Notes: generated by a model from the sequence alone, not told the origin. A DNA stretch of 64,000 bases from Candidatus Heimdallarchaeum aukensis (GCA_021513695.1 CP084166.1:768001-832000); one strand, 5' to 3'; positions 39,755 through 50,002 are shown, counted from the stretch's first letter. Program-made: numbers and translations.

Positions 39755-40669
39755 ATGAAAAAAATAACAAAAATCTTTTTTTCTGTTTGCTTTCTTCTTT
39801 TAATCTCTATCCTAACCTTTAGTCAATTTTCTAAAGGGCTATATTCTCCAGATTTGAAGGATAATACAGTATATACCTGGAATGTTCAAACTCTCGCAAA
39901 AGTAGGTACTTTTGATACACCTTACTTATCTATTGATGATAGTACAATAAAACAAGGTGATGTCATTAAGTTACGGCTATTAAATAACACAGATGAAGTA
40001 GCAAATGGATCCGTAAGTAATCTATGGGGAAGAAGTAACGTTTGGTTCGACCTCTTTATAAACAACGAATTTGTTACAAATGATTCTGATGTACCATTAT
40101 TTGCCTTAGATTGGATGGGAATTCCCAGAATATATTTTGATTGGGCTAACCAGTATGACTTTTATTGGGTACTTCCAGTAGAATTTACTAACGAAACAGG
40201 GACATATGAATTCTTTGAAGTAACACATAGTCTTTTTAATAATTTAAAACTAAGTCAAAGTTCTGTTCAAGATTACCACGGATATTATAGTTCGGTCAGT
40301 TGGAACTTAAAACAGATATCAAAATTATCTAACTTAACTTGGTCATTAGTTGTTAAATGGTCATATAAAGAAAAAACAGAAGATAGAACCTCACCAGATT
40401 GGAGTATCATAAATCTAGAAGAAACAATAAGCACAGAATTTAGATTTAATAGAAAAACAGGACTACTAGTATATTTGTCTTATAAATATACTCTAAAGCA
40501 AAATGAAAAATCTGAAGGTGTTGAAACTAACGAAAACGAAAGTTTAGATTTGCTAATAACAAGTAATGAATTACCTACAAAAGCTTCTACAAACTTTATA
40601 TTATATATGATAACCATCCTTACAGTTACAAGTATTAAAATAGTCTATAGTAAACGCAAGAAGAAATAG
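39755..40669 (+). CDS. secreted protein with C-terminal TM anchor
   Basis: Signal-like FFSVCFLLLISILTF, several NxS/T sequons, and the C-terminal FILYMITILTVTSIKIV followed by KRKKK. Confidence 0.6.
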   Translation: MKKITKIFFSVCFLLLISILTFSQFSKGLYSPDLKDNTVYTWNVQTLAKVGTFDTPYLSIDDSTIKQGDVIKLRLLNNTDEVANGSVSNLWGRSNVWFDLFINNEFVTNDSDVPLFALDWMGIPRIYFDWANQYDFYWVLPVEFTNETGTYEFFEVTHSLFNNLKLSQSSVQDYHGYYSSVSWNLKQISKLSNLTWSLVVKWSYKEKTEDRTSPDWSIINLEETISTEFRFNRKTGLLVYLSYKYTLKQNEKSEGVETNENESLDLLITSNELPTKASTNFILYMITILTVTSIKIVYSKRKKK

Positions 40670-40723
40670 TAGCTTTCTTCTTCTCTTTTTAATTTTTCAA
40701 AAAAGTTTATTAGTCCAAAAAAA

Positions 40724-41101
40724 ATGAGTTATTTAATGAGTTCCAGCAATTTAAGTGAAAGATATATTGACCTAGAGCAGATTTGCAACGAATATGATAT
40801 CAGACTTTTTAAACCTTTAAGTTGGATATTAATTTTAAACCTCGAACTAATTCCAGAAGAAGATATTCAAGCTGATCCAAAACTAAAATTTTCCCACGCT
40901 TTACTTGAGGGTAATAAAGAAGAAGCTTTGAAAATAGCAAATGAGTTAAAAGGAAAAGATACTACCATCTCGAAATACTTTAAGCAACTACTAGAAATCG
41001 ATCCTGAATTAAAAAATACTCTAGAAATAAGTAAAAAGTTCTTTGACTTTTCAAAAAGAAGAATAGAATTTATCAAAGAACATGGTATTAAAGCATATTA
41101 G
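40724..41101 (+). CDS. hypothetical helical protein
   Basis: 125-aa ORF with no recognised motifs. The antisense ORF 40867..41076 looks less protein-like. Confidence 0.4.
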   Translation: MSYLMSSSNLSERYIDLEQICNEYDIRLFKPLSWILILNLELIPEEDIQADPKLKFSHALLEGNKEEALKIANELKGKDTTISKYFKQLLEIDPELKNTLEISKKFFDFSKRRIEFIKEHGIKAY

Positions 41102-41126
41102 TCTTATTATTTTTACTTTTTCTATT

Positions 41127-41441
41127 TTAGTAGATACTTTCTCTCATCCATTCAATATATTCATCGGAGGCATACTTTATAGGTAAAGCTATAATCTCTG
41201 GGATTTCATATGTATGATGTTTCTTTAATTCTTCAACAATATCATGGAATTTATCAGAAAAAGTTTTAGCAATAACTAAATACTCTTCTGCCTTCTCAAT
41301 CTTCCCTTTCCACCAATATTTTGAGTGTATTTTCGAAATTTGAACACAGACTACAAGCTTTTCTTCTAGAAGAAAATTACTTATCCTTTCTGCTTCTTCT
41401 TTGCTATCAATACTTACATGCAAATGTATTGGTTCATTCAT
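41127..41441 (-). CDS. cutA: divalent-cation tolerance protein CutA
   Basis: KLVVCVQISKIHSKYWWKGKIEKAEEYLVIAKT and HHTYEIPEIIALP match the CutA1 pattern. Confidence 0.85.
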   Translation of the reverse strand: MNEPIHLHVSIDSKEEAERISNFLLEEKLVVCVQISKIHSKYWWKGKIEKAEEYLVIAKTFSDKFHDIVEELKKHHTYEIPEIIALPIKYASDEYIEWMRESIY

Positions 41442-41506
41442 TGTTTTTTTTTCCTCTTTTCTCTTTTTAAGTATATAGGAGAAGATATATATCGAAATAT
41501 TTAGAT

Positions 41507-41692
41507 GTGGCTATATGTTTAGCATATAAGGAATGTAAAAAACAGTTAGAGTATGTTCAAAGCACTCTAAGGAAAATAAACAAAGAAAATGAATACGAGA
41601 TAGAATATGTTACAGAACTGAATAAAATCGCTGAAGAAGGAATATTTCTAACACCTGCACTAATAATTGAAGACAAAGTAATAAGTGAATGA
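41507..41692 (+). pseudogene. decayed copy of the small thioredoxin-fold (redox-active disulfide protein 2-like) gene
   Basis: Collinear at nt and aa level with 45599..45844. However, GCKKC has become AYKEC (TGT to TAT), the N-terminal strand is shortened, and the C-terminus is truncated by ~16 aa. Confidence 0.5.
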
Positions 41693-41794
41693 AAAAAATA
41701 AGTAAAAACAAACTTGAAAAAATGCTTTAAAAGATTCTTTTTTTCTTTTTTTTTTATTCTTTTCAAACTGTTCTTTATTTAGAAGTTTAACCCC

Positions 41795-42595
41795 TTATTC
41801 AATAGTTGCCAAGAGTTTGTCTTTATCTTCAGATGCAATAAATATCATTGAGTTTATATAATCTGTCAAAATTTCTTTTTCTGTCTCTGTTGGTTTAAAA
41901 TTTAGCGCATGAGTTAAAATAAATATCAACTCTGTTGCTTGCTCTGGATAGTGATCAAATAAATAGATAATACTGTTGAACGGGATAAAATTTAATAATG
42001 CTGAACTAAGTCTACGTACTTCACTTTCGCTTTTTTCAGATATAGGCTTCAAAATTGAATAAAATTCTCTAAGCTGCAAAGTGATAAATTCATAATATGT
42101 CGAACCAAATGGAAACCTTTGTTCATGTAAGCTTAAAGCAATATACAAATAGACGTTAATGTAAAACTGAATCTTCAGAATAATGGTTAAATTAGTATCA
42201 GACCTTGGAGTAAAATACAATTGATATCTTTTAAATTTGTCAGAGAATTCAATAATTTCTGAAATAATTTCTTGAGAAAATAATCCGCTTTCGTTTTCGA
42301 CTATTTCATTAAAAATAGAAGGATATAATTTGGATAGCATGAATAGGATTGTCTGTTTATCCATCTTGTTTTCTTCTATTATTTTTTTCGCAGTTAAAGC
42401 AAATACTACTAGAAGTTCAATTGGATCTTGTATTTCTTTTAGTTCTTGGCTTGATTGGGCATTAGGCATTGAAAACAAAATTTTCTCATATTCTCCATTC
42501 TCTATTCTTTCCTCACATTCTTTTGATATTAATTGAAAAAAGGAATGAGTTGGAAGATAAATTCTAATTTTCTCACGCAAGGAATACGAATACAT
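41795..42595 (-). CDS. hypothetical all-helical protein
   Basis: 266 aa. Starts 8 nt after the upstream TPR gene's stop, which looks like an operon. Confidence 0.5.
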   Translation of the reverse strand: MYSYSLREKIRIYLPTHSFFQLISKECEERIENGEYEKILFSMPNAQSSQELKEIQDPIELLVVFALTAKKIIEENKMDKQTILFMLSKLYPSIFNEIVENESGLFSQEIISEIIEFSDKFKRYQLYFTPRSDTNLTIILKIQFYINVYLYIALSLHEQRFPFGSTYYEFITLQLREFYSILKPISEKSESEVRRLSSALLNFIPFNSIIYLFDHYPEQATELIFILTHALNFKPTETEKEILTDYINSMIFIASEDKDKLLATIE

Positions 42596-42603
42596 TCTAA
42601 CAC

Positions 42604-43920
42604 CTACAAATTAAAATGATGAAATAGGTCTAGAAAATTACCTATCATTTCAGAATATGCAAGCTCTCCGTGATCAATCATCCATTGATAAATTTCTTCA
42701 ATTCCTTGCAAGAGAGATCTTACATTTGTATTTAAATTCAATTGAGTAATCTGGTAGGATAGATAAAAGAATTTTGTCATTTTTGCTTTAACAATATCAC
42801 CATAATTCTCAAAAATCGCCATTATTCTCTTCATTTCTTCTTCGATATCTAAATTCTCCAACTCTTTATCTACTTCATAGTTCATTAAGAAGCCTGAAAA
42901 ATCTCTTAACATCGACCTAGACTTATTTTGGATTAGAGCTGGTAGAAAAACAAAAGAAGTTAAAGCTTCTTCGTATTCTATATTTTCAGAAAGAAAATAA
43001 TTCTTTGCTTTCATAAAATATTGTGTAGCTTCTTTAAATTGTCCTATTGTCTGGTTTAATCCTGCAAGCAATCTATAAATTTTGGAAGCCAAATCATAAT
43101 TTTCTATACTTTCAACTGTAGACAATAACCTTTCTCCTTTTTCTATGGCTTCTTCAGGGCTTATTTGTTCTGCACGCAATTCCAATTCTATCCTATAAGC
43201 ATTTAAAGCTAAAGGTTGAATGTCTTCAGGACCATATTTTTGAATATATGAATCAATATATTCGACAGTTGTTGAGGGCTCTTCCGTAAATTGAGATAAA
43301 ATTATTTTTTTCTCGAATGCCGACCTTTCAAAAGGCGTTTCTTCAAAGTACTTGAGAGCTTTATCTAATTTAGAAAAAGCAGTCATTACATCTCCTTTTT
43401 CAGCATCGATTTGAGCTTCTAAAACATTTAATTCGTGGTAGTAAACTTCATTACCAAATTCTTTTGCTTTATCTTTAAGAGTAGAGATAAGTTCCTTAGC
43501 TTCATCAAGATTATGATAAATAATCATTATTTGAGCCCTTAATTGCCAGTATCTAAAATAGATCTGAACATTTGCGCTTATGTTGATATCTTCCTGTTCT
43601 ATAGAGTCTAACCATTCTAAACCTAAAGTGTACTCCCCATATAAAATGTAAGTCGCTGCTAACTCAATTACAGCTTCTATATTTTCTTGTAGAAGTAATT
43701 GATCTCGTGTTTGAAAATAAAGTTCTTCCAGAATTTCGATAGCTTCTTTCTTTCTTCCAACAAGAGAAAGACATCTAGCGATTTTTATTTTGATTCTTCT
43801 CTCTTCTTCTTCCATCCCTTTTGTAAAAAAAATTGTATGAGCTTTTAAATAATAGTGTAAAGCTTGTTTAAATTTATATTTAGTAAAAAGTTCGTCGCCT
43901 TTATCTCTTTCAAAGCTCAT
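42604..43920 (-). CDS. TPR repeat protein
   Basis: GDELFTKYKFKQALHYYLKA, RCLSLVGRKKEAIEILEELY and further 34-aa-type helix pairs. Confidence 0.65.
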   Translation of the reverse strand: MSFERDKGDELFTKYKFKQALHYYLKAHTIFFTKGMEEEERRIKIKIARCLSLVGRKKEAIEILEELYFQTRDQLLLQENIEAVIELAATYILYGEYTLGLEWLDSIEQEDINISANVQIYFRYWQLRAQIMIIYHNLDEAKELISTLKDKAKEFGNEVYYHELNVLEAQIDAEKGDVMTAFSKLDKALKYFEETPFERSAFEKKIILSQFTEEPSTTVEYIDSYIQKYGPEDIQPLALNAYRIELELRAEQISPEEAIEKGERLLSTVESIENYDLASKIYRLLAGLNQTIGQFKEATQYFMKAKNYFLSENIEYEEALTSFVFLPALIQNKSRSMLRDFSGFLMNYEVDKELENLDIEEEMKRIMAIFENYGDIVKAKMTKFFYLSYQITQLNLNTNVRSLLQGIEEIYQWMIDHGELAYSEMIGNFLDLFHHFNL

Positions 43921-44000
43921 TTAATGCCCTCTATTACTTCAATAAAAAATGAAGATAGAAATATATAAACTTGAAGATAATGCAAAAAAAATAAAAAAAG

Positions 44001-44152
44001 AAAAGGAAAACCTAGAAAATATTCTTATATTCTATTTTTTCTGAATATTTCTGCATCTCTTTACCTTTACTTCTTGATCAATGTGCAAAGAGCTTATTTC
44101 TAGCTCTAAGGATAAAAGTAGTTTTGTGGATTTGTTAAACACAATGCTGATG
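44001..44152. repeat. left copy of a ~152-bp direct repeat (copy of intergenic + 3' end of the 581-aa gene)
   Basis: Aligns by eye with 45914..46066, with the last 55 nt about 87% identical. The minus-strand reading gives ISIVFNKSTKLLLSLELEISSLHIDQE, against ISIVCNKSTGLLLSLELETSDMNIDQE in the real gene. Confidence 0.85.
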
Positions 44153-44173
44153 TAGATGTATTGGTTCATTCAT
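44153..44173 (-). pseudogene. orphan cutA 5' fragment (8 codons) at the duplication junction
   Basis: The minus strand reads ATG AAT GAA CCA ATA CAT CTA CAT (MNEPIHLH), identical in protein to the cutA start at 41441. It joins out of frame to the repeat at a shared CAT. Confidence 0.8.
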
Positions 44174-44243
44174 TTTTTTATCATATAGATTAAAGTGTAG
44201 AACATATCGAAATTTTTAAATATGTCGTGTTGAGTTTTGGCTT

Positions 44244-45587
44244 ATGTTTTGGCAAACAATTCTAGATATGATCTATAATGGATGGTTAAGTTTACTCGAT
44301 TACCTTTCATTTCATGTGCTCCTTTGTTTAATACCCGCTTTCTTTATTGCAGGAGCTATGATGGTGTTTGTGCCTAAAAATGCAATCTTAAAATATTTAG
44401 GGAAAGACTCGAAGAAAATTGTCTCGTATCCAGTAGCTGCAATTGCAGGTTTACTCATTGCAGTATGCTCTTGTACTGTTCTCCCCCTATTTGCAAGCAT
44501 AAAGAAAAAGGGAGCAGGATTAGGTCCAGCTATAACTTTTCTTTTTTCAGCTCCAGCTGTTAATATTCTAGCTCTGGTTTATACAGGAAGTATAATTGGA
44601 GCAGATATTGCCATAGCAAGGGCAATTTTGTCTTTATTATTTGCTATAATAATTGGATATATAATGGAGTTAATATTTGATAGGAAAAAACCAGAGAAAA
44701 AGAAAGGAAAAGAAGAAAAAAATCAAGAAATTGATCAACAAAAAGAAAGGAAAGAAGAAAAGAAAAAGCTCACAGTCAACTGGAGCAAACTAGGAACAAT
44801 TAGTCTGGGCGTTTTCGGATTATTATTAGGTATTCTTCTTTTAACTCTTGATAAGAAATTATTAGATTCAATGGGAATAGCTTCTCCGCTTATTTTTCAA
44901 ACAATAATGTGGATTATAGGGTTGGCTAGTTTAATTATTTTTTCTTTAATATACAATCAAAAAGAACTCTCTCTATTCTTTCTATTAATATACGTATTAT
45001 TTACTGGTACATCTCAAATAGCCTACTTTTCAGCCTATTGGGGAATTGGAAATTTGACTGTTAATCCATCTTTTCTTAACATGTTAACGAAAGCTCTTTT
45101 AACACTTATTGCAACCATTTATGTAGTTATTTTCACAATTTCAAGATTCGATAAAGAAGAAAGAAGAGAATGGATGAAGGAAACTTGGTCATTCTTTAAA
45201 TCGATCTTTCCTCTGATTGTTATTGGAGTTTTCGTTGCAGGAATGTTAGAGGTAATTATCCCTGAAAAATGGGTTCAATCAGTTGTTGGGAGGAATAGTG
45301 TCGTTGGAAACCTAACGGGTGTTCTTTTTGGAGTATTCATGTATTTTCCAACATTAATGGAGGTACCTATTGCTAGAATGTTTCTCAATTTAGGGATGTC
45401 AAGAGGTGTGCTTCTTGCTTATCTACTTGCAGACCCTGAATTGAGTATTCAATCTATTTTGGTTACTCGAAAATATTTAGGCAACAAGAAAAATTTTATA
45501 TTTGTGCTTTTAGTTACGATCTTCTGTACCATTGCTGGACTGATTTTCGGTCTTGTAGTTAGTAAAGAAAGTATAAAATGGTATTAA
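44244..45587 (+). CDS. predicted permease (ArsP/YraQ-type, PF03773-like) with a Lys/Glu-rich loop
   Basis: Polytopic protein. LIAVCSCTVLPLFASIKKKGAGLGPAITFLFSAPAVNILAL is typical of this permease family. The central loop is KKPEKKKGKEEKNQEIDQQKERKEEKKK. Confidence 0.7.
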   Translation: MFWQTILDMIYNGWLSLLDYLSFHVLLCLIPAFFIAGAMMVFVPKNAILKYLGKDSKKIVSYPVAAIAGLLIAVCSCTVLPLFASIKKKGAGLGPAITFLFSAPAVNILALVYTGSIIGADIAIARAILSLLFAIIIGYIMELIFDRKKPEKKKGKEEKNQEIDQQKERKEEKKKLTVNWSKLGTISLGVFGLLLGILLLTLDKKLLDSMGIASPLIFQTIMWIIGLASLIIFSLIYNQKELSLFFLLIYVLFTGTSQIAYFSAYWGIGNLTVNPSFLNMLTKALLTLIATIYVVIFTISRFDKEERREWMKETWSFFKSIFPLIVIGVFVAGMLEVIIPEKWVQSVVGRNSVVGNLTGVLFGVFMYFPTLMEVPIARMFLNLGMSRGVLLAYLLADPELSIQSILVTRKYLGNKKNFIFVLLVTIFCTIAGLIFGLVVSKESIKWY

Positions 45588-45598
45588 GAGGTGAAAAA

Positions 45599-45844
45599 AT
45601 GTCGGATAAAAAAACAATTAAAGTTATAGGTGCAGGATGTAAGAAATGTAAACTGCAATTAGACTATGTAAAAGAAGCTTTAGCAAAGCTAAACAAAGAA
45701 GATGAATATGAAATCAAATATATTACAAATGTAGATGAAATAGTGGAAGAAGATGTATTTCTTACACCAGCTGTAAAGATAGACAATGAAACAATAAATG
45801 AAGGTAAGGTAATAGGAATCAATAAGCTTGTAAAAATTCTTTAA
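45599..45844 (+). CDS. small thioredoxin-fold protein (redox-active disulfide protein 2-like)
   Basis: MSDKKTIKVIGAGCKKCKLQ with an intact CxxC. AGGTGA lies upstream of this ATG, so the track start at 45578 is probably too early. This is the usual partner of the upstream permease family. Confidence 0.75.
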   Translation: MSDKKTIKVIGAGCKKCKLQLDYVKEALAKLNKEDEYEIKYITNVDEIVEEDVFLTPAVKIDNETINEGKVIGINKLVKIL

Positions 45845-45913
45845 TATTTCTCTTTTTTTAATAGTATATATACTCGAAAATAATACAAAAAAGACTAAAG
45901 AAAAAGAAGAAAA

Positions 45914-46066
45914 AAAGGAAAATCTAAAGACTATTCTAATATCCCATTTCTTTTGAATATTTCCATAATCTCATTAACTTTTTCTTCTTGATCTATGTTC
46001 ATATCACTTGTTTCTAGTTCTAAGGACAAAAGTAGTCCTGTGGATTTATTACATACAATGCTGATG
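45914..46066. repeat. right copy of the ~152-bp direct repeat
   Basis: Covers the intergenic sequence plus the last ~45 codons of gene 45931..47676. It matches 44001..44152. Confidence 0.85.
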
Positions 46067-47676
46067 GTTTCAAGATTAAGTTCTTTTATATCGCTTGTGT
46101 CCCAGATATAGGTATGCAAAACGTTTCCAGATTCATATTCTACTTGTTTCATCACAATTTCTTTTCCTTCTAAAAATGCTTCTAAATTATTCATGTCAAT
46201 CTTTCTATTAATGTTTAAGGTTATAATGAAATCTCTTAATGCTTTTTTCTCCATTCTTGATTTACTTATCCGTAAATACACTACTAAAGCTACCCACGCA
46301 AAAATGCTGAAAATAAATAGTATAAGATTTGCTATCTGATCTCTAGCTAACGGTATTTTATTTACAATTGAATTATAAATTGTTTGGTCAGAAGAGATTT
46401 CTCCAATGGCAAAAGCTACAATCTCAAGAATTATTGAACCAGCAAGAATCAATTCGATCATATCAATAGCTTCGCTAGTTCTTGTATTAGCTTGAAGAAC
46501 TTGATTCATCGATTTTGTATTTTGTGTCATTGCTTTATTCATTTTTCTTATTTGCATTTCAGAAAGTGTATTTATGTGATCTCTCTTCCCTTCGAGCTCA
46601 GTAAGTAAACCCTTAATTACTTTAGTGCTTTCTTTTACTCTATTTCGTATGGTTTCTAATCCTTTTTCGATTTCAAAGAAAGAAAAAGTGGATAAACTAT
46701 CAAAATTATTTGTTAGCTGCTCACATGAATCATGCAAAAACTCTTTTACTTGTCCTAAAACGCTAATTGTACTTGTTAGAATAGTTATCTCTTCTTGTAC
46801 TTTGTTTAGAGCATCAGTATTTCCTTTTACAGCCATATTAACTAATTCTTGAATTTCATTGGTTTGATCATAAAGTTCCCATACTCGAGACATGAAACTG
46901 TCAATGAATATAGTTATTCCTTCTTTTATACCGTTATAAATTGAGTAATATTCCATTTCTTCAGTAAACTCTTTGGGTACAAGAATAGCCCCTCTATTAC
47001 CTATAAAATAGATGGAACCATCTATAGAATGTGCTCTAAACCCTTCTCCAATTATTTGACTTATCTCAATCTCACAATCTTCACCATCTAAGTAATCTTT
47101 TACGTCTTCAAACTTCTTGTTTATATCTTCCCCAACAATGAGAATAGTTTTAGGTCTATACATTGGGTTACCAAAAATAATTTTGATAAAGTTCCTCTGA
47201 AATTCTGTAAGAAGAGAGTCTATAACTTGTGATGAATCTTGTGAAAGATCAGCAATAACGCGAGAGAGTTTATCTAAAGACATAAAGCTATTCTTTCCAT
47301 TAATTTCACGAAGATCTAAAGAATAAATAATAAAACCTAACTTTGAAATAAATACAGCCATTTCCTCAATCTGTACTATTCCTTCTTCTTCAGGTAGATC
47401 AATTATTGCTTCAAGATTAACATAATTATTAATATCGTAATCCTTTACTGTTACTTTTGTATATTTGCCTTCTGTTAGAAAAGAGGGAGAATCAGGGTCA
47501 GAGTCAATCAATCCTGTAAGTAAAGTTTTAGAAGAACTCTTTTCTATATCTAGTTTCTTATTAAGTTCTCTCAGCTGATTACTATCAAAAGGAAGCCATT
47601 CAATTACGAAAATTTTAGGGTTTTTTAGAAAAAGTATTTCACTTAATTCATCCTTTATGTTATCTGATTTTTGCAT
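45931..47676 (-). CDS. large membrane protein: soluble N-region, long Q/N/T-rich helix, two TM helices, C-terminal domain
   Basis: MNKAMTQNTKSMNQVLQANTRTSEAIDMIE runs straight into TM1 (LILAGSIILEIVAFAIG). TM2 is ANLILFIFSIFAWVALVVYL. About 110 aa follow TM2. I recognise no family. Confidence 0.5.
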   Translation of the reverse strand: MQKSDNIKDELSEILFLKNPKIFVIEWLPFDSNQLRELNKKLDIEKSSSKTLLTGLIDSDPDSPSFLTEGKYTKVTVKDYDINNYVNLEAIIDLPEEEGIVQIEEMAVFISKLGFIIYSLDLREINGKNSFMSLDKLSRVIADLSQDSSQVIDSLLTEFQRNFIKIIFGNPMYRPKTILIVGEDINKKFEDVKDYLDGEDCEIEISQIIGEGFRAHSIDGSIYFIGNRGAILVPKEFTEEMEYYSIYNGIKEGITIFIDSFMSRVWELYDQTNEIQELVNMAVKGNTDALNKVQEEITILTSTISVLGQVKEFLHDSCEQLTNNFDSLSTFSFFEIEKGLETIRNRVKESTKVIKGLLTELEGKRDHINTLSEMQIRKMNKAMTQNTKSMNQVLQANTRTSEAIDMIELILAGSIILEIVAFAIGEISSDQTIYNSIVNKIPLARDQIANLILFIFSIFAWVALVVYLRISKSRMEKKALRDFIITLNINRKIDMNNLEAFLEGKEIVMKQVEYESGNVLHTYIWDTSDIKELNLETISIVCNKSTGLLLSLELETSDMNIDQEEKVNEIMEIFKRNGILE

Positions 47677-47680
47677 TTTG

Positions 47681-48286
47681 TCACCTCACTAACCTATCTG
47701 AAACTCTAATGAAATAGGGCTCAGAAACATAACTCACATCTTCGCTTTCTAGAAAATCAAGATCAGTATCTGATTCATCACAAATAGGGCAATCCATTTT
47801 GATAATAGGTTTTTCACCTAGTTCCATATAAAACTTCAAATGAGTGTTACATTTTTTGCAATAAAATAAATTCTTAACTTCTTCTTTTACATCTGCAGGA
47901 ATTTGTTTTAGTAACTCATATCCTTGAGGAGTAATTCTGTAAGCTGTCACAAATCCATGTTTTGCAGTGCTTAATCTTATTTTTTCTAGAATGTCCAACT
48001 CTCTTAAATCTTCGATATCATCTACTCCTTCATAACTAATGTTACAGCTATAACAGCTTCTACCAAAAAATTGAACTGAAGTAGGAGCATAGTCATAAGT
48101 CTCATACGAGCCTTTAATAATCTGATAGTAAATAACTGCAAGCAAAGGTAACTCTTTTATCCAGATTCTCTTTCCATTTTGAATAAAAGAATTATCGTCT
48201 GTTCCAGACACCCACTTTAGTAGATAGTCTATAGTATATAATAATAGTTGTTGATCTCTAGTTAAGTCCTTAATTTCAACATCCAT
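47681..48286 (-). CDS. winged-helix plus zinc-ribbon protein
   Basis: LRELDILEKIRLSTAKHGFVTAYRITPQGYELL is wHTH-like. CxxC pairs are CYSC, CKKC and CPIC. Its stop lies 4 nt before the downstream membrane-protein gene. Confidence 0.5.
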   Translation of the reverse strand: MDVEIKDLTRDQQLLLYTIDYLLKWVSGTDDNSFIQNGKRIWIKELPLLAVIYYQIIKGSYETYDYAPTSVQFFGRSCYSCNISYEGVDDIEDLRELDILEKIRLSTAKHGFVTAYRITPQGYELLKQIPADVKEEVKNLFYCKKCNTHLKFYMELGEKPIIKMDCPICDESDTDLDFLESEDVSYVSEPYFIRVSDRLVR

Positions 48287-48466
48287 ATTTAACCAGTCTA
48301 ATAAATCCTAAGTTCTATAAAATGTTTTTGTGAGTTTTGGAAATATATCTCCACAAACTTGTTAATTAAAAATTTCACAAATCTTACTATTCATACTCTT
48401 TATTTTTTCAGTTAATTTTATATTACAGTATTTTTCTATCTTTTAAACGCCTTTTGAGATGATAAA

Positions 48467-50002
48467 ATGAAAATAAACCTCAACAAATTACAAAGAAAAG
48501 AAAATGGACAAGTAAGGATAGGAGTATTAATCAGTGGAACAGGCATCGGAGTTTTTATGGCCTCTCTTGATGCCACAGTAGCAGTAATCCTCCTTGAGCT
48601 CATACGAGCAGATTTCAATGTTAGTCCTAATAGAATTCAGTGGGTAGTTCTAAGTTATTTATTAGTAATGATGGCGTTTACTATTATTGCAGGAGATCTA
48701 GGAGATAAAATAAGTAATAAACATATTTTTCAATTAGGAATGCTTATTTTTGCTTTAGGTTCTTTTCTTTGTTTTCTTTCACATAGCCTAATGTTTCTGA
48801 TTTTTGCCAGGGCAATCCAGTCATTAGGAGCTACTGGAATGATAGCTAATGGTATTGCCCTTGTTACTCGCTTTACAACTAGAAATAATAGAGGAAAAGC
48901 AATGGGTTTAAGCAACCTAATAATTTCTGTTTCTGTCATTTCTGGCCCTTTACTTGGTGCTTTAATAACCCATTATTATAGTTGGAGAGTAGTCTTTCTA
49001 GTTAATGTTCCCATAGGTTTAGTCGGATTGATTTGGGGACAATTTGCAATTCCTGAAACACCTTCATTAAAGAAAGAAAAAAAGGCTGATTATATAGGTT
49101 CGTTATCTTTTGCTTCATTTTTGACATTATTTATGTTAAGTTTAAGTCTATTTGTAGAGGAGATCGTACCCAACTCACAAACCTATGCAATAATAAGTTT
49201 AGTTGGAAGTGTTATCTTCTTTCCTATTTTTATCTGGTGGGAAGGGAGACATGATAATCCCTTAATTGATCTCAAGTTGTTAAAAGACAAAAAAATAAGC
49301 TTTGGGCTAATCACCGCAGTGATGAAACACCAAGGCTATATAATTATTCTTTATCATCTTAACATTTATCTTCAAGCAATACATATAGCAGCAAGAATAG
49401 ATAATATTGAACTTCCTTCAATAATAATTGTAGGATTAATTATTTCTGGTTTGCCTGTCGGAATGGCTATAATGGCTGTAATTTCAGGGTATCTCTCTGA
49501 TAAAATAGATGCACGTTATTTATGTACAGCTGCAATTTTGGGAGTTGTGTTAATGCTAATTCTGTTGTTTATTTTCTTATCAGTCGATGCTCCTATTTGG
49601 TTCTATGTAATTGTTACTACAATAATAGGAGTTTGTATAGGACTATTTCAATCACCAAACATTAATTCAGTCATGTCTGCAGCTCCAAAAGATAAAGTAG
49701 GCGTAATAAGTGGTCTTCACGGGTTAACAACAAGTATTGGTATAAGTTTAGGAACAGCTATTTCTACAGCAGTATTGACTCTAGGAGGAACAATAATAGC
49801 AAATAGTAAAGGGATTCAAGTAGGAAATCTTGTTGATACACCAGAAGTCTATGTTCCAGCTCTTCGTTGGATGTTCCTATTCTTTGCTATCATAACTTCC
49901 TTTGGTGCAATAATATCTTATCTCAGAGGACCAGAAAACAGAGAGAAAATAGAAGAAGAAAAAGTTAATTTGAAAAACTTTAAATCATTAATAAAAAATT
50001 AA
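48467..50002 (+). CDS. MFS transporter, 14-TM drug:H+ antiporter (DHA2/EmrB-like)
   Basis: FMASLDATVAVILLELI, WVVLSYLLVMMAFTIIAGDLGDK and many TM segments. Confidence 0.8.
   Translation: MKINLNKLQRKENGQVRIGVLISGTGIGVFMASLDATVAVILLELIRADFNVSPNRIQWVVLSYLLVMMAFTIIAGDLGDKISNKHIFQLGMLIFALGSFLCFLSHSLMFLIFARAIQSLGATGMIANGIALVTRFTTRNNRGKAMGLSNLIISVSVISGPLLGALITHYYSWRVVFLVNVPIGLVGLIWGQFAIPETPSLKKEKKADYIGSLSFASFLTLFMLSLSLFVEEIVPNSQTYAIISLVGSVIFFPIFIWWEGRHDNPLIDLKLLKDKKISFGLITAVMKHQGYIIILYHLNIYLQAIHIAARIDNIELPSIIIVGLIISGLPVGMAIMAVISGYLSDKIDARYLCTAAILGVVLMLILLFIFLSVDAPIWFYVIVTTIIGVCIGLFQSPNINSVMSAAPKDKVGVISGLHGLTTSIGISLGTAISTAVLTLGGTIIANSKGIQVGNLVDTPEVYVPALRWMFLFFAIITSFGAIISYLRGPENREKIEEEKVNLKNFKSLIKN

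Follow-up and report, generated by a model that had tools for sequence, protein, structure and literature searches.

A locus of the Asgard (Heimdall) archaeon Candidatus Heimdallarchaeum aukensis carries a thioredoxin-like gene, the start of cutA and the end of a gene that we call M twice each, and it raises the question of whether these repeats record a duplication made in place or the arrival of related genes from elsewhere. We analysed a stretch of 64,000 nt (CP084166.1:768001-832000; the window, with positions counted from its first nucleotide). A previous sequence-only reading had proposed that a unit stretching from the cutA 5' end to the M 3' end was duplicated head to tail. That layout, with its one novel junction, stands, but the divergence of the genes inside does not fit it. 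The probable explanation, in our judgement, is the footprint of an operon replacement: a xenologous segment (cutA 5' end, promoter, permease P2, thioredoxin T2) would have been inserted with a target duplication of ~200 bp, and the resident operon deleted.

The genome closest to the window species, that of Candidatus Heimdallarchaeum endolithica PR6 (L003), has the locus in single copy, in the order cutA / P (permease) / T (thioredoxin) / X / Y / M. Comparison with the orthologous locus in relatives, a check suggested in the sequence-only reading, gave a single-copy state before the event. The order P-T-X-Y is also found on a contig from a more distant member of the Heimdallarchaeaceae (L014), and cutA / P / T / X / Y / M is the ancestral order. 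The following genes of this order are found in the window:

41127-41441, minus strand: cutA, intact, 104 aa (Pfam CutA1, E=1.5e-31; 87.5% amino acid identity to the syntenic cutA of PR6)
41795-42595, minus strand: gene X, 266 aa, no Pfam family (81.6% amino acid identity to PR6, same position)
42604-43920, minus strand: gene Y, 438 aa, with TPR repeats (Pfam TPR matches; 94.5% amino acid identity to PR6)
45931-47676, minus strand: gene M, MJ1566_N family, intact, 581 aa (87% amino acid identity to PR6)

The outer genes, cutA and M, are both intact, and M aligns over its full length to eight other Heimdall homologues. X follows T in L014 as well, and Y is likewise present there. Since X and Y occupy the same position in PR6 and L014, they are ancestral between T and M, and are therefore missing from the right-hand unit rather than inserted in the left one; the genes at 41795-43920 had been thought to be either inserted in one copy or lost from the other. 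The same arrangement is present in four assemblies besides the window, from different samples (L039, L012, L013 and L002), and thus an assembly artefact is excluded. L039 (Logan SRR15988954) covers the whole arrangement in a single contig of 70.5 kb; L012 and L013, from two JGI metagenomes, are 99.2% and 98.6% identical to the window.

Repeats were detected by a blastn self-comparison of 40500-48500, an ungapped repeat search and shuffle controls. Besides cutA and M, the segments involved at the ends of the two units are:

41442-41506, no strand: resident cutA/permease intergenic spacer (three-way alignment with PR6; motif search)
43962-44152, minus strand: left repeat copy (DR-L), ~66 nt of Y-M spacer and the final ~45 codons of M in dead form
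44150-44173, minus strand: copy of cutA codons 1-8 (MNEPIHLH), from the repeat search and blastn
44174-44243, no strand: promoter spacer of the incoming cassette, keeping an 18-nt motif (44204-44221)
44032-44169, minus strand: 45-aa open reading frame across the junction J1 (MNQYIYISIVFNKST...), starting at an overlapping ATG 4 nt downstream of the cutA ATG
45865-46066, minus strand: right repeat copy (DR-R), a spacer fragment and the functional 3' end of M, ending at GATG (46063-46066)

The self-comparison, which had been suggested as a check, returned three matches with E-values from 1.5e-37 to 5e-4: 43962-44152 with 45865-46066 (77.7% over 202 columns, E=1.5e-37), 41512-41744 with 45625-45859 (70.3% over 236 columns, E=1.6e-31) and 41418-41447 with 44150-44179 (27/30 identical, E=5e-4). 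An ungapped comparison put the M repeat at 82% identity across 93 nt (44060-44152 and 45974-46066) and the cutA 5' piece at 90% across 30 nt. In shuffle controls, the M 3' end reached z=25, the thioredoxin z=14 and the cutA 5' end with its spacer z=8.4. All three similarities in the sequence-only reading are therefore real and highly significant. The M repeat had been drawn too short (44001-44152 and 45914-46066); it reaches left to 43962 and 45865, and consists of ~66 nt of spacer and 136 nt of coding sequence. The proposed resemblance between the spacers at 44174-44243 and 41442-41506 also held, with a score of 18.5 that was reached in 0/1000 shuffles (maximum 16.5). Most of this signal comes from an 18-nt motif, ATATCGAAATWTTTARAT, at 41489 and 44204, and a motif search found no further occurrence anywhere in the window. 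The resident spacer holds the motif (ATATCGAAATATTTAGAT) at 41489-41506 and ends there, where the deletion of the resident permease begins on the left; the cassette spacer is strongly diverged from it, with indels. Over cutA 5' end and spacer, the resident copy and PR6 differ at 10 of 107 comparable columns of the three-way alignment.

The duplication breakpoint in cutA lies after codon 7/8 (41420/41421), directly 3' of CATG on the plus strand. At J1 (44152/44153) the copy of the M 3' end meets the copy of the cutA 5' end, and the two have ATG (CAT on the minus strand) in common. The join through a shared CAT was thus correctly placed, but it creates no in-frame cutA-M fusion: reading across J1 from the cutA ATG gives MNEPIHLHQHCV and then a stop. 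The 45-aa frame listed above, identical in L012, L013 and L039, is probably a by-product of the rearrangement. Adjacent direct copies, one novel junction from unit end to unit start and a single copy in the nearest outgroup are what an in-situ tandem segmental duplication produces. Its two copies should also be mutual closest relatives, with which the 200-bp repeats taken alone are compatible, but the thioredoxin and the permease are not.

The thioredoxin-like gene had been said to occur twice (41507 and 45599), and the homology is real, but the left one is a pseudogene:

41507-41744, plus strand: thioredoxin pseudogene, remnant of the resident operon (alignments, tree and identity to PR6)

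Its start and first 4-5 codons are gone, deleted together with the whole permease; the CxxC motif now reads YxxC, the first Cys codon being TAT, and a 1-nt deletion gives a TGA at 41690. It retains 86.8% nucleotide identity to PR6 T, with which it forms a clade at 100% bootstrap, and, as judged from identity and tree, it is the true orthologue of that gene. A single deletion of ~1.37 kb took the resident P and the first codons of the resident T, which bears out the proposed loss of the permease on the left. The resident homologues have thus been lost (P) or inactivated (T, with neither start nor CxxC, and frameshifted), as in xenologous displacement. Since the divergence of the pseudogene slightly exceeds that of an orthologue still in function, and no more than slightly, the loss of the resident T appears to be recent. 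The remnant in strain L012 has other lesions: its second Cys codon is TGA, and a 54-nt miniature insertion sequence (IS) lies at 41525/41526. The remnant is decaying independently in sister strains.

The genes on the right are intact:

44244-45587, plus strand: permease P2, ArsP_1/YraQ family, 447 aa (Pfam PF03773, E=1.2e-73)
45599-45844, plus strand: thioredoxin-like T2, 81 aa, with an intact CxxC, GCKKC (Pfam Thioredoxin_3, PF13192, E=1.8e-12)
45845-45862, no strand: stub of the T2 terminator region, 18 nt (three-way alignment)

Together with the first 7-8 codons of cutA and the promoter spacer, they make up a cassette of 1.7 kb (44153 to ~45862), in which P2 is the sole intact permease at the locus. 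TCTCTTTTTTTAAT in the stub matches PR6 sequence downstream of T, after which the sequence switches to Y-M spacer; this junction, J2 (~45862/45863), joins the stub to the right repeat copy. An ArsP_1 permease (PF03773) followed directly by a PF13192 protein with CxxC is found as a gene pair also in PR6, L014, L016, L019 and L021.

The cassette is much more diverged from PR6 than its surroundings. P2 has 72.0% nucleotide and 73% amino acid identity to PR6 P, and T2 70.7% nucleotide identity to PR6 T, compared with 80-88% at the nucleotide level for six flanking genes; from end to end, the cassette stays at a uniformly low identity of 58-82%. At synonymous sites, P2 has a pS of 0.72 against PR6, whereas flanking genes have 0.41-0.65. 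The P2-PR6 divergence amounts to ~0.8 of the depth to L014, as against 0.15 for Y and 0.34 for X. In a neighbour-joining tree of T nucleotide sequences, T2 falls outside the clade of the pseudogene and PR6 (bootstraps 100% and 94%), and the distance ratios of P agree with this placement. Within the permease family, P2 is sister to PR6 P with 100% bootstrap. The excess does not come from rate acceleration: P2 and PR6 P are equally far from outgroups (65.5 vs 65.3%, 65.8 vs 65.8%), and Tajima relative-rate tests with four outgroups detected no acceleration of P2 or T2 (p=0.13-1.0). Because its dN/dS is 0.07, P2 is judged to be under purifying selection, and not in relaxed or adaptive evolution. 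The assumption that the right unit is a copy of the resident genes thus fails, with T2 outside the resident clade and both genes at 70-72% to PR6; on these comparisons, P2-T2 did not arise in this lineage by recent copying of the resident genes. The cassette probably derives from a lineage, itself probably a related one, that split off before the window species and PR6 separated.

Its location among native sequence, together with its much greater divergence, suggests that the cassette was acquired from a relative, which would be an unsampled one that also had cutA beside P. That adjacency is suggested because the copied cutA start departs from both the resident cutA and PR6 at two synonymous positions only, both within a single Leu codon (TTG to CTA), while more distant Heimdall genomes carry an ArsR-type gene in place of cutA beside P. 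A search of 5.8 billion proteins did not find the donor lineage, the closest relative of P2 being PR6 P (72%), barring a 99%-identical strain, and no compositional anomaly was seen in the cassette (GC 31.5%, window 30.4%).

The cassette sits inside the 3' end of M, between ~200-bp direct repeats of native sequence, and M is kept intact by the repeat. The M fragment in DR-L has lost 2 nt and carries many replacement substitutions. The Y-proximal spacer (43921-43990) matches PR6 except at ~3 positions, as read from the alignment, and is not conserved in L014, which argues that DR-L is native. In its coding part, DR-R shows 20 differences from PR6 over 121 aligned sites (83.5% identity), as is typical of an orthologue; over these sites, 20 changes are unique to DR-L, 4 to DR-R and 16 to PR6. 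When the 136 nt from the 3' end of M were placed in a rooted tree, bootstrap was only 54%, and that both repeat copies look native is suggested by the branch lengths (4 vs 16, binomial p ~0.01) and the spacer. Since synonymous divergence between the window species and PR6 is already 0.6-1.5, a dead fragment older than the speciation should be unrecognisable; the repeats therefore look young, that is, post-speciation, as well as native.

The right boundary of the M repeat (46066/46067) coincides with an insertion site in a sister strain:

46063-46067, plus strand: insertion site of a TnpB-family IS in strain L013 (GATG, then the IS; comparison of L013 with the window)

The sequence of L013 parts from that of the window immediately past 46066, and this nucleotide is also the repeat boundary J1. 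The partial copy of the element itself has only sub-threshold matches to PF01385 and PF07282, and sequence searches against solved structures gave no match. Full-length homologues, of ~484 aa, carry PF07282, which places the element with TnpB/OrfB proteins (RuvC-like domain, zinc ribbon); they fall in clusters of 31 sequences (including a PR6 protein) and 18 sequences (including one from Ca. H. aukensis), and NCBI gives a distant homologue the name [quoted passage not shown]. Five copies with different flanks all have [CG]ATG abutting the left end, and the right end of the L042 copy ends in CATG. The element is thus multicopy and motif-specific in its insertion, the absence of a target duplication having been checked in one full copy (L042). 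The 6.6-kb locus contains ~60 [CG]ATG sites, and no IS remnant was found at J1 or J2. The CATG on the cutA side is not independent evidence for an IS, because a join through a 3-nt microhomology would create it anyway.

Several other histories could produce this locus. Chance similarity or misassembly has some background in a 30% GC genome, whose many low-complexity A/T runs yield weak repeats; the E-values of 1e-37 and 1e-31, the z-scores of 14-25 and the same structure in four other assemblies, one with the 70.5-kb contig, leave it a negligible probability, and repeats only ~78% identical could not have been confused by an assembler. The history first proposed, a recent in-situ head-to-tail duplication after which the left unit lost P, the right unit lost X-Y and the surviving P2-T2 diverged fast, agrees with the architecture and the junction, and the divergence of the repeats fits an event after speciation. 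We regard it as very improbable, given that T2 lies outside the clade of pseudogene and PR6, that relative-rate tests show no acceleration, that the synonymous sites of P2 are saturated against PR6 beyond those of flanking genes, and that its dN/dS indicates purifying selection. Divergence, tree and rate tests together do not fit a duplication in situ followed by losses.

An older duplication, from cutA 5' to M 3' and before the PR6 split, would have left both operon copies in place for a long time. PR6 would then have collapsed to a single copy by recombination between repeats, and the window species would have lost X-Y on the right and, recently, P on the left, with gene conversion keeping the dead fragments similar. 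The layout is precisely what a tandem duplication of the native gene order would give, P2 and PR6 P are sisters with full bootstrap, and neither a donor lineage nor a compositional signal was found. We nevertheless consider it unlikely, although it keeps a real share of the probability: at a synonymous divergence of 0.6-1.5, DR-L and DR-R are still 78-82% identical and the cutA 5' copy matches at 27/30, which calls for gene conversion as an extra assumption; a traceless loss in PR6 is needed as well, and the 86.8% identity of the resident pseudogene to PR6 makes the loss of the resident genes recent. A further possibility combines both kinds of event: unequal recombination between two TnpB-family ISs, at CATG in cutA and GATG in M, would have made a native tandem duplication, the ISs would have been excised scarlessly, and related DNA would later have replaced the right interior (spacer, P, and T onward), with deletion of X-Y. 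Both unit boundaries are directly 3' of [CG]ATG, the motif that flanks five copies of the element, the element occupies the M site in L013, and the repeats look native while the interior looks foreign. Yet two rare events are needed, including recombination with ~28% diverged DNA over at most 24-30 nt of homology on the left, and none of the four assemblies has a copy of the IS, or a remnant of one, at J1 or in cutA; we hold this history to be improbable.

The operon replacement therefore remains our preferred reading, and we infer the insertion of the cassette to have run as follows. The process would have started with a break or a recombination event at GATG in M, a target of the abundant TnpB-family IS; the left end of the captured DNA may have been joined through the 3-nt ATG microhomology, and the right end may have primed copying from ~200 bp upstream on another copy of the chromosome, giving the flanking duplication. 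With two copies of the operon present, loss of the resident one would have been tolerated. In a more specific version, which we think decidedly unlikely, the break was the work of the element's RNA-guided nuclease: TnpB cut the vacated site after scarless excision of an IS at GATG in M, and repair captured 1.7 kb of DNA from a related Heimdallarchaeon and copied ~200 bp from the sister chromosome.

The fruitless donor search, the unremarkable GC content and the lack of an IS remnant at J1 or J2 weigh against the replacement, and so does the position of the cassette: a mere 2.5 kb separates it from its homologue, and its ends are those that a tandem duplication of the native locus would give. 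A free insertion would for this reason need a coincidence, or a process guided by homology or by an IS.

Xenologous gene displacement, or "gene displacement in situ", was reportedly described in operons by Omelchenko et al. in 2003. The term occurs in PMC3542582 and PMC1274311. As in those cases, a divergent homologue has taken over the function, the resident is lost and the neighbourhood is otherwise syntenic. Unlike in them, the newcomer lies at a distance of 2.5 kb, within the 3' end of a different gene and accompanied by a target duplication of ~200 bp; the two stages can both be seen, as an intact newcomer and a decaying resident; and the donor was apparently a fairly close relative with the cutA-P adjacency, not a distant taxon. 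Homologous chromosomal transfer between related archaeal species, seen as over-divergent genes, has been reported (Williams, Gogarten and Papke 2012, PMC3542582), and our locus resembles it in the transfer between related species and in genes diverged far above the genome average. There, replacement proceeds by homologous recombination at the same position, whereas here both ends of the cassette are illegitimate junctions, and replacement would have taken two steps, an addition followed by a deletion.

Tandem duplication by unequal recombination between IS copies is well known in bacteria. The locus shares with it the head-to-tail layout, the one novel junction, the intact outer genes and breakpoints at IS target sites, but here the right unit was not copied from the left one, gene content differs between the units, and no IS remains at the junction. 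Homology-facilitated illegitimate recombination, said to have been described by de Vries and Wackernagel in 2002, likewise places foreign DNA near a chromosomal homologue with microhomology joins; here, a homologous anchor is not demonstrable, and J1 (3-nt ATG) and J2 (0-2 nt) both look illegitimate. TnpB with its omega-RNA cleaves vacated IS200/IS605 donor sites, and break-stimulated recombination copies the transposon back (Meers et al., bioRxiv 10.1101/2023.03.14.532601). Our locus has in common with that system an element of the TnpB family whose left end is immediately preceded on the 5' side by a short motif, [CG]ATG, and a breakpoint at such a site, occupied in a sister strain; instead of the transposon being copied back, unrelated DNA would have been captured with a templated duplication.

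The gene-replacement footprint is real but fairly ordinary, and does not reveal a new kind of system. For annotation, it flags a 61-aa "thioredoxin" and the 45-aa junction frame as not being genes. It is a rare case in that the newcomer and the decaying resident of one gene replacement are both visible at a single locus, with the state before the event kept in a sister species and decay still ongoing in near-identical strains. The locus indicates chromosomal operon exchange between related Asgard lineages, and connects the breakpoint of a rearrangement with a site targeted by an abundant TnpB-family element. If the TnpB-driven version were true, TnpB-type elements, of which these genomes hold many copies, would directly promote the exchange of genes and the replacement of operons among Asgard archaea.

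The locus carries a resident permease-thioredoxin region and, to its right, a second and divergent one. A blastn self-comparison of 40500-48500 bore out all three similarities that the sequence-only reading had picked out. These were between the 3' end of an MJ1566_N-family gene (M) and a second copy of it (43962-44152 versus 45865-46066, 77.7% over 202 columns, E=1.5e-37), between two thioredoxin-like segments (41512-41744 versus 45625-45859, 70.3% over 236 columns, E=1.6e-31), and between the cutA start with its spacer and a second copy (41418-41447 versus 44150-44179, 27/30 positions). Shuffle controls gave z=25 for the M 3' end, 14 for the thioredoxin and 8.4 for the cutA segment; the cutA-side spacer similarity alone scored above all 1000 shuffles. 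The gene order is as follows:

41127-41441, minus strand, cutA
from 41507, plus strand, 61-aa thioredoxin-like ORF
41795-42595, minus strand, gene X, 266 aa
42604-43920, minus strand, gene Y, 438-aa TPR protein
43962-44152, dead copy of the M 3' end
44150-44173, 8-codon copy of the cutA start
right of this, plus strand, ArsP_1 permease P2
after P2, plus strand, thioredoxin T2
45931-47676, minus strand, M, 581 aa

At the junction 44152/44153, native M sequence is joined to the copied cutA start without an in-frame fusion: reading from the copied cutA ATG gives MNEPIHLHQHCV*. Between the copied start and the resident one there are just two differences, both synonymous and both in a single Leu codon, which hints weakly that the copy may have evolved within a working cutA elsewhere. 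An ORF of 45 aa crosses the junction on the minus strand (44032-44169), and its ATG shares bases with the start codon of the cutA copy; a duplicate of the promoter region on the cutA side precedes this predicted ORF, whose sequence is the same in four assemblies. An assembly artefact is excluded by recurrence of the arrangement in other assemblies: a 70.5-kb Logan contig (L039), two JGI metagenome contigs (L012 and L013, from strains with 99.2% and 98.6% identity to the window, respectively) and L002 all have the same order, with no difference among them in the sequence of the junction region.

The gene order before the event was obtained by comparing orthologous loci. Within the species collection, the genome nearest to the window is that of Ca. 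Heimdallarchaeum endolithica PR6 (CP084167.1, locus L003). Its flanking proteins are 82-94% identical to those of the window, a range that fits the published value of 90% amino-acid identity for PR6 against Ca. H. aukensis PM71 (PMC8813620). PR6 is single-copy, with the order cutA, permease (P), thioredoxin (T), X, Y, M, and a more distant Heimdallarchaeaceae contig (L014) has the order P-T-X-Y. These loci demonstrate the ancestral order, in which X and Y lay next to T; the right-hand unit lacks them. Of the two possibilities raised for X and Y, absence from the right copy thus holds and insertion into the left one does not. Eight further Heimdall genomes keep M and its upstream partner, with no P, T or cutA near them. 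M and the neighbouring 201-aa Cys-rich gene of the MJ1567 family (45931-48286) form a conserved pair, present in all nine Heimdall genomes found (including loci L004-L011). The PR6 M has an in-frame TAG (L003:10301-10303) where the window has CAG (Gln), giving ORFs of 101 and 476 aa; possible causes are a nonsense mutation, recoding and a sequencing error.

The pair itself occurs widely among Heimdall genomes and consists of an ArsP_1/YraQ-family permease and a small thioredoxin-like protein with a CxxC motif. An 18-nt near-palindromic motif, ATATCGAAATWTTTARAT, precedes the permease in all three spacers, the resident, the incoming and that of PR6 (window 41489-41506 and 44204-44221; L003:15641-15658), although the rest of these spacers has diverged, and does not occur again within the 64-kb window. 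It is probably a regulatory site of the operon, either an operator or a promoter element. In distant relatives the pair adjoins an ArsR-type regulator in place of cutA; in two of them (L019:5455-7650 and L021:5446-7640) this HTH_5 regulator is divergently transcribed from the pair. In Heimdallarchaeum, cutA takes the regulator's place beside the permease, with no adjacent regulator gene.

The left copy was said to have lost its permease, and alignment with PR6 revealed how: a single deletion begins ~22 nt before the permease start codon and ends near codon 4-5 of T, so that all of P and the beginning of T are gone. The remnant of T has TAT where the first Cys codon should be, and the loss of 1 nt creates a TGA at 41690. 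The lesions in L012 are different (a TGA at the second Cys codon, and a 54-nt insertion at 41525/41526); the remnant is drifting. Its identity to PR6 T nevertheless remains 86.8%, comparable to the flanking genes (80-88%). Both its orthology and its decay are demonstrated, and the left copy is the resident operon, now dead.

The right copy, a cassette from 44153 to ~45862, has a different history. P2 and T2 are only 72.0% and 70.7% identical at the nucleotide level to PR6 P and T, and this low identity runs evenly (58-82%) from spacer through terminator. In a nucleotide tree of T, two pseudogene alleles and PR6 T formed a clade with 100% bootstrap, to which T2 was sister with 94%; L014, L016, L019 and L021 fell outside. 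P2 and PR6 P are equally distant from outgroups (65.5/65.3% and 65.8/65.8% identity), and Tajima relative-rate tests found no acceleration of P2 or T2 (p=0.13-1.0). The pS between P2 and PR6 P is 0.72, versus 0.41-0.65 for six flanking genes, and the dN/dS of P2 is 0.07. From the tree, the identities, pS and the rate tests, P2-T2 were therefore not copied from the resident genes after speciation. The recent duplication in situ that had been proposed as the simplest model is contradicted by the tree and the rate tests; these nucleotide comparisons demonstrate a deeper origin of the cassette, and place the right copy before the species. No compositional sign of foreign origin was found in it. 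An origin from the Heimdallarchaeum mobile elements known as aloposons, HeimM and HeimV, which carry giant genes and use tRNA genes as integration sites (Wu et al. 2022, PMC8813620), was rejected: the window has no tRNA, and the cassette no giant genes. An Rfam scan of the window returned nothing.

The repeats that flank the cassette tell of a later date. In the left copy, the spacer next to Y matches PR6 at all but ~3/70 positions, as read from the alignment; L014 does not conserve this spacer. Between the functional M 3' end and PR6 there are differences at 20/121 sites, a normal level for orthologues. Over these 121 aligned coding sites, 20 changes are found only in the dead copy, 4 only in the functional copy and 16 only in PR6. 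Since dS between the species is 0.6-1.5 and the dead fragment has diverged by only ~17%, the fragment is younger than speciation, barring gene conversion. When the three M 3' copies were rooted on six distant homologues, bootstrap support was only 54% for this short segment, and comparing their A-rich spacers beside the M stop codon gave z <= 1.6, with the boundary misplaced in part of the comparison. That the flanking repeats are native and young is well supported by these alignments, but not proven. With the cassette of deeper origin, the second junction (~45862/45863) therefore parts old DNA from young DNA. Also rejected was Campbell-type or homology-anchored integration in which the M 3' end came from the donor: the functional end is 83.5% identical to PR6, the cassette only ~70%.

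The M breakpoint coincides with an insertion-sequence site. The L013 strain tracks the window as far as 46066, which closes the right repeat and is the nucleotide equivalent to 44152/44153, and then continues into unrelated DNA, an element within M (L013:4291-5010). A simple insertion at this nucleotide would mean the element's right end abutting GTTTCAAG... The element is multicopy, and its protein has homologues of ~484 aa with a Cas12f1-like/OrfB zinc-ribbon domain, in clusters of 31 member sequences (with a PR6 protein) and 18 (with a Ca. H. aukensis protein); a distant homologue bears the name TnpB. Searches of Pfam, NCBIfam and solved-structure sequences with the partial element protein found nothing. 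In five of five copies with differing flanks, [CG]ATG immediately precedes the left end, and the sole complete copy terminates in ...AAAAGTAAATCATG. Of 15 loci picked up by a metagenome pattern scan for the left end, only one (L031) was a real copy. The 54-nt insertion in L012 (L012:7229-7282) derives from this family as a miniature in which a left end is fused to a right end; it matches the left end of L042 exactly over 30 nt and has the same terminus as the L042 right end, which rules out that these 53-54 extra nt are a 5' remnant of the resident permease. This miniature follows a GCATG and lies in the first Cys codon of the T pseudogene; the window lacks it and reads TAT at that codon. With ~60 [CG]ATG sites in the 6.6-kb locus, the chance of an independent hit on the exact repeat-boundary nucleotide is ~1 in 60. 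The cutA-side breakpoint likewise lies directly after CATG; a 3-nt microhomology join would give the same result anyway.

We propose that the cassette came from an unsampled relative that likewise had cutA beside P. The event may have started at the GATG site in M, through a break (after excision or TnpB cleavage) or through recombination involving element copies. The ~200-bp duplication, which demonstrably left M intact, would have been made by copying from another copy of the chromosome, and the resident operon would have been deleted later, once redundant. The main rival is an ancient duplication, which the window lineage kept and PR6 collapsed. No transfer is required for this model to account for the architecture, but it depends on gene conversion having kept the dead fragments recognisable and on a loss in PR6 that left no trace.

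The locus is a real and well-documented rearrangement footprint that adds an example of processes already known: xenologous displacement and insertion-sequence-associated rearrangement. If the link to TnpB is causal, it gains in interest.
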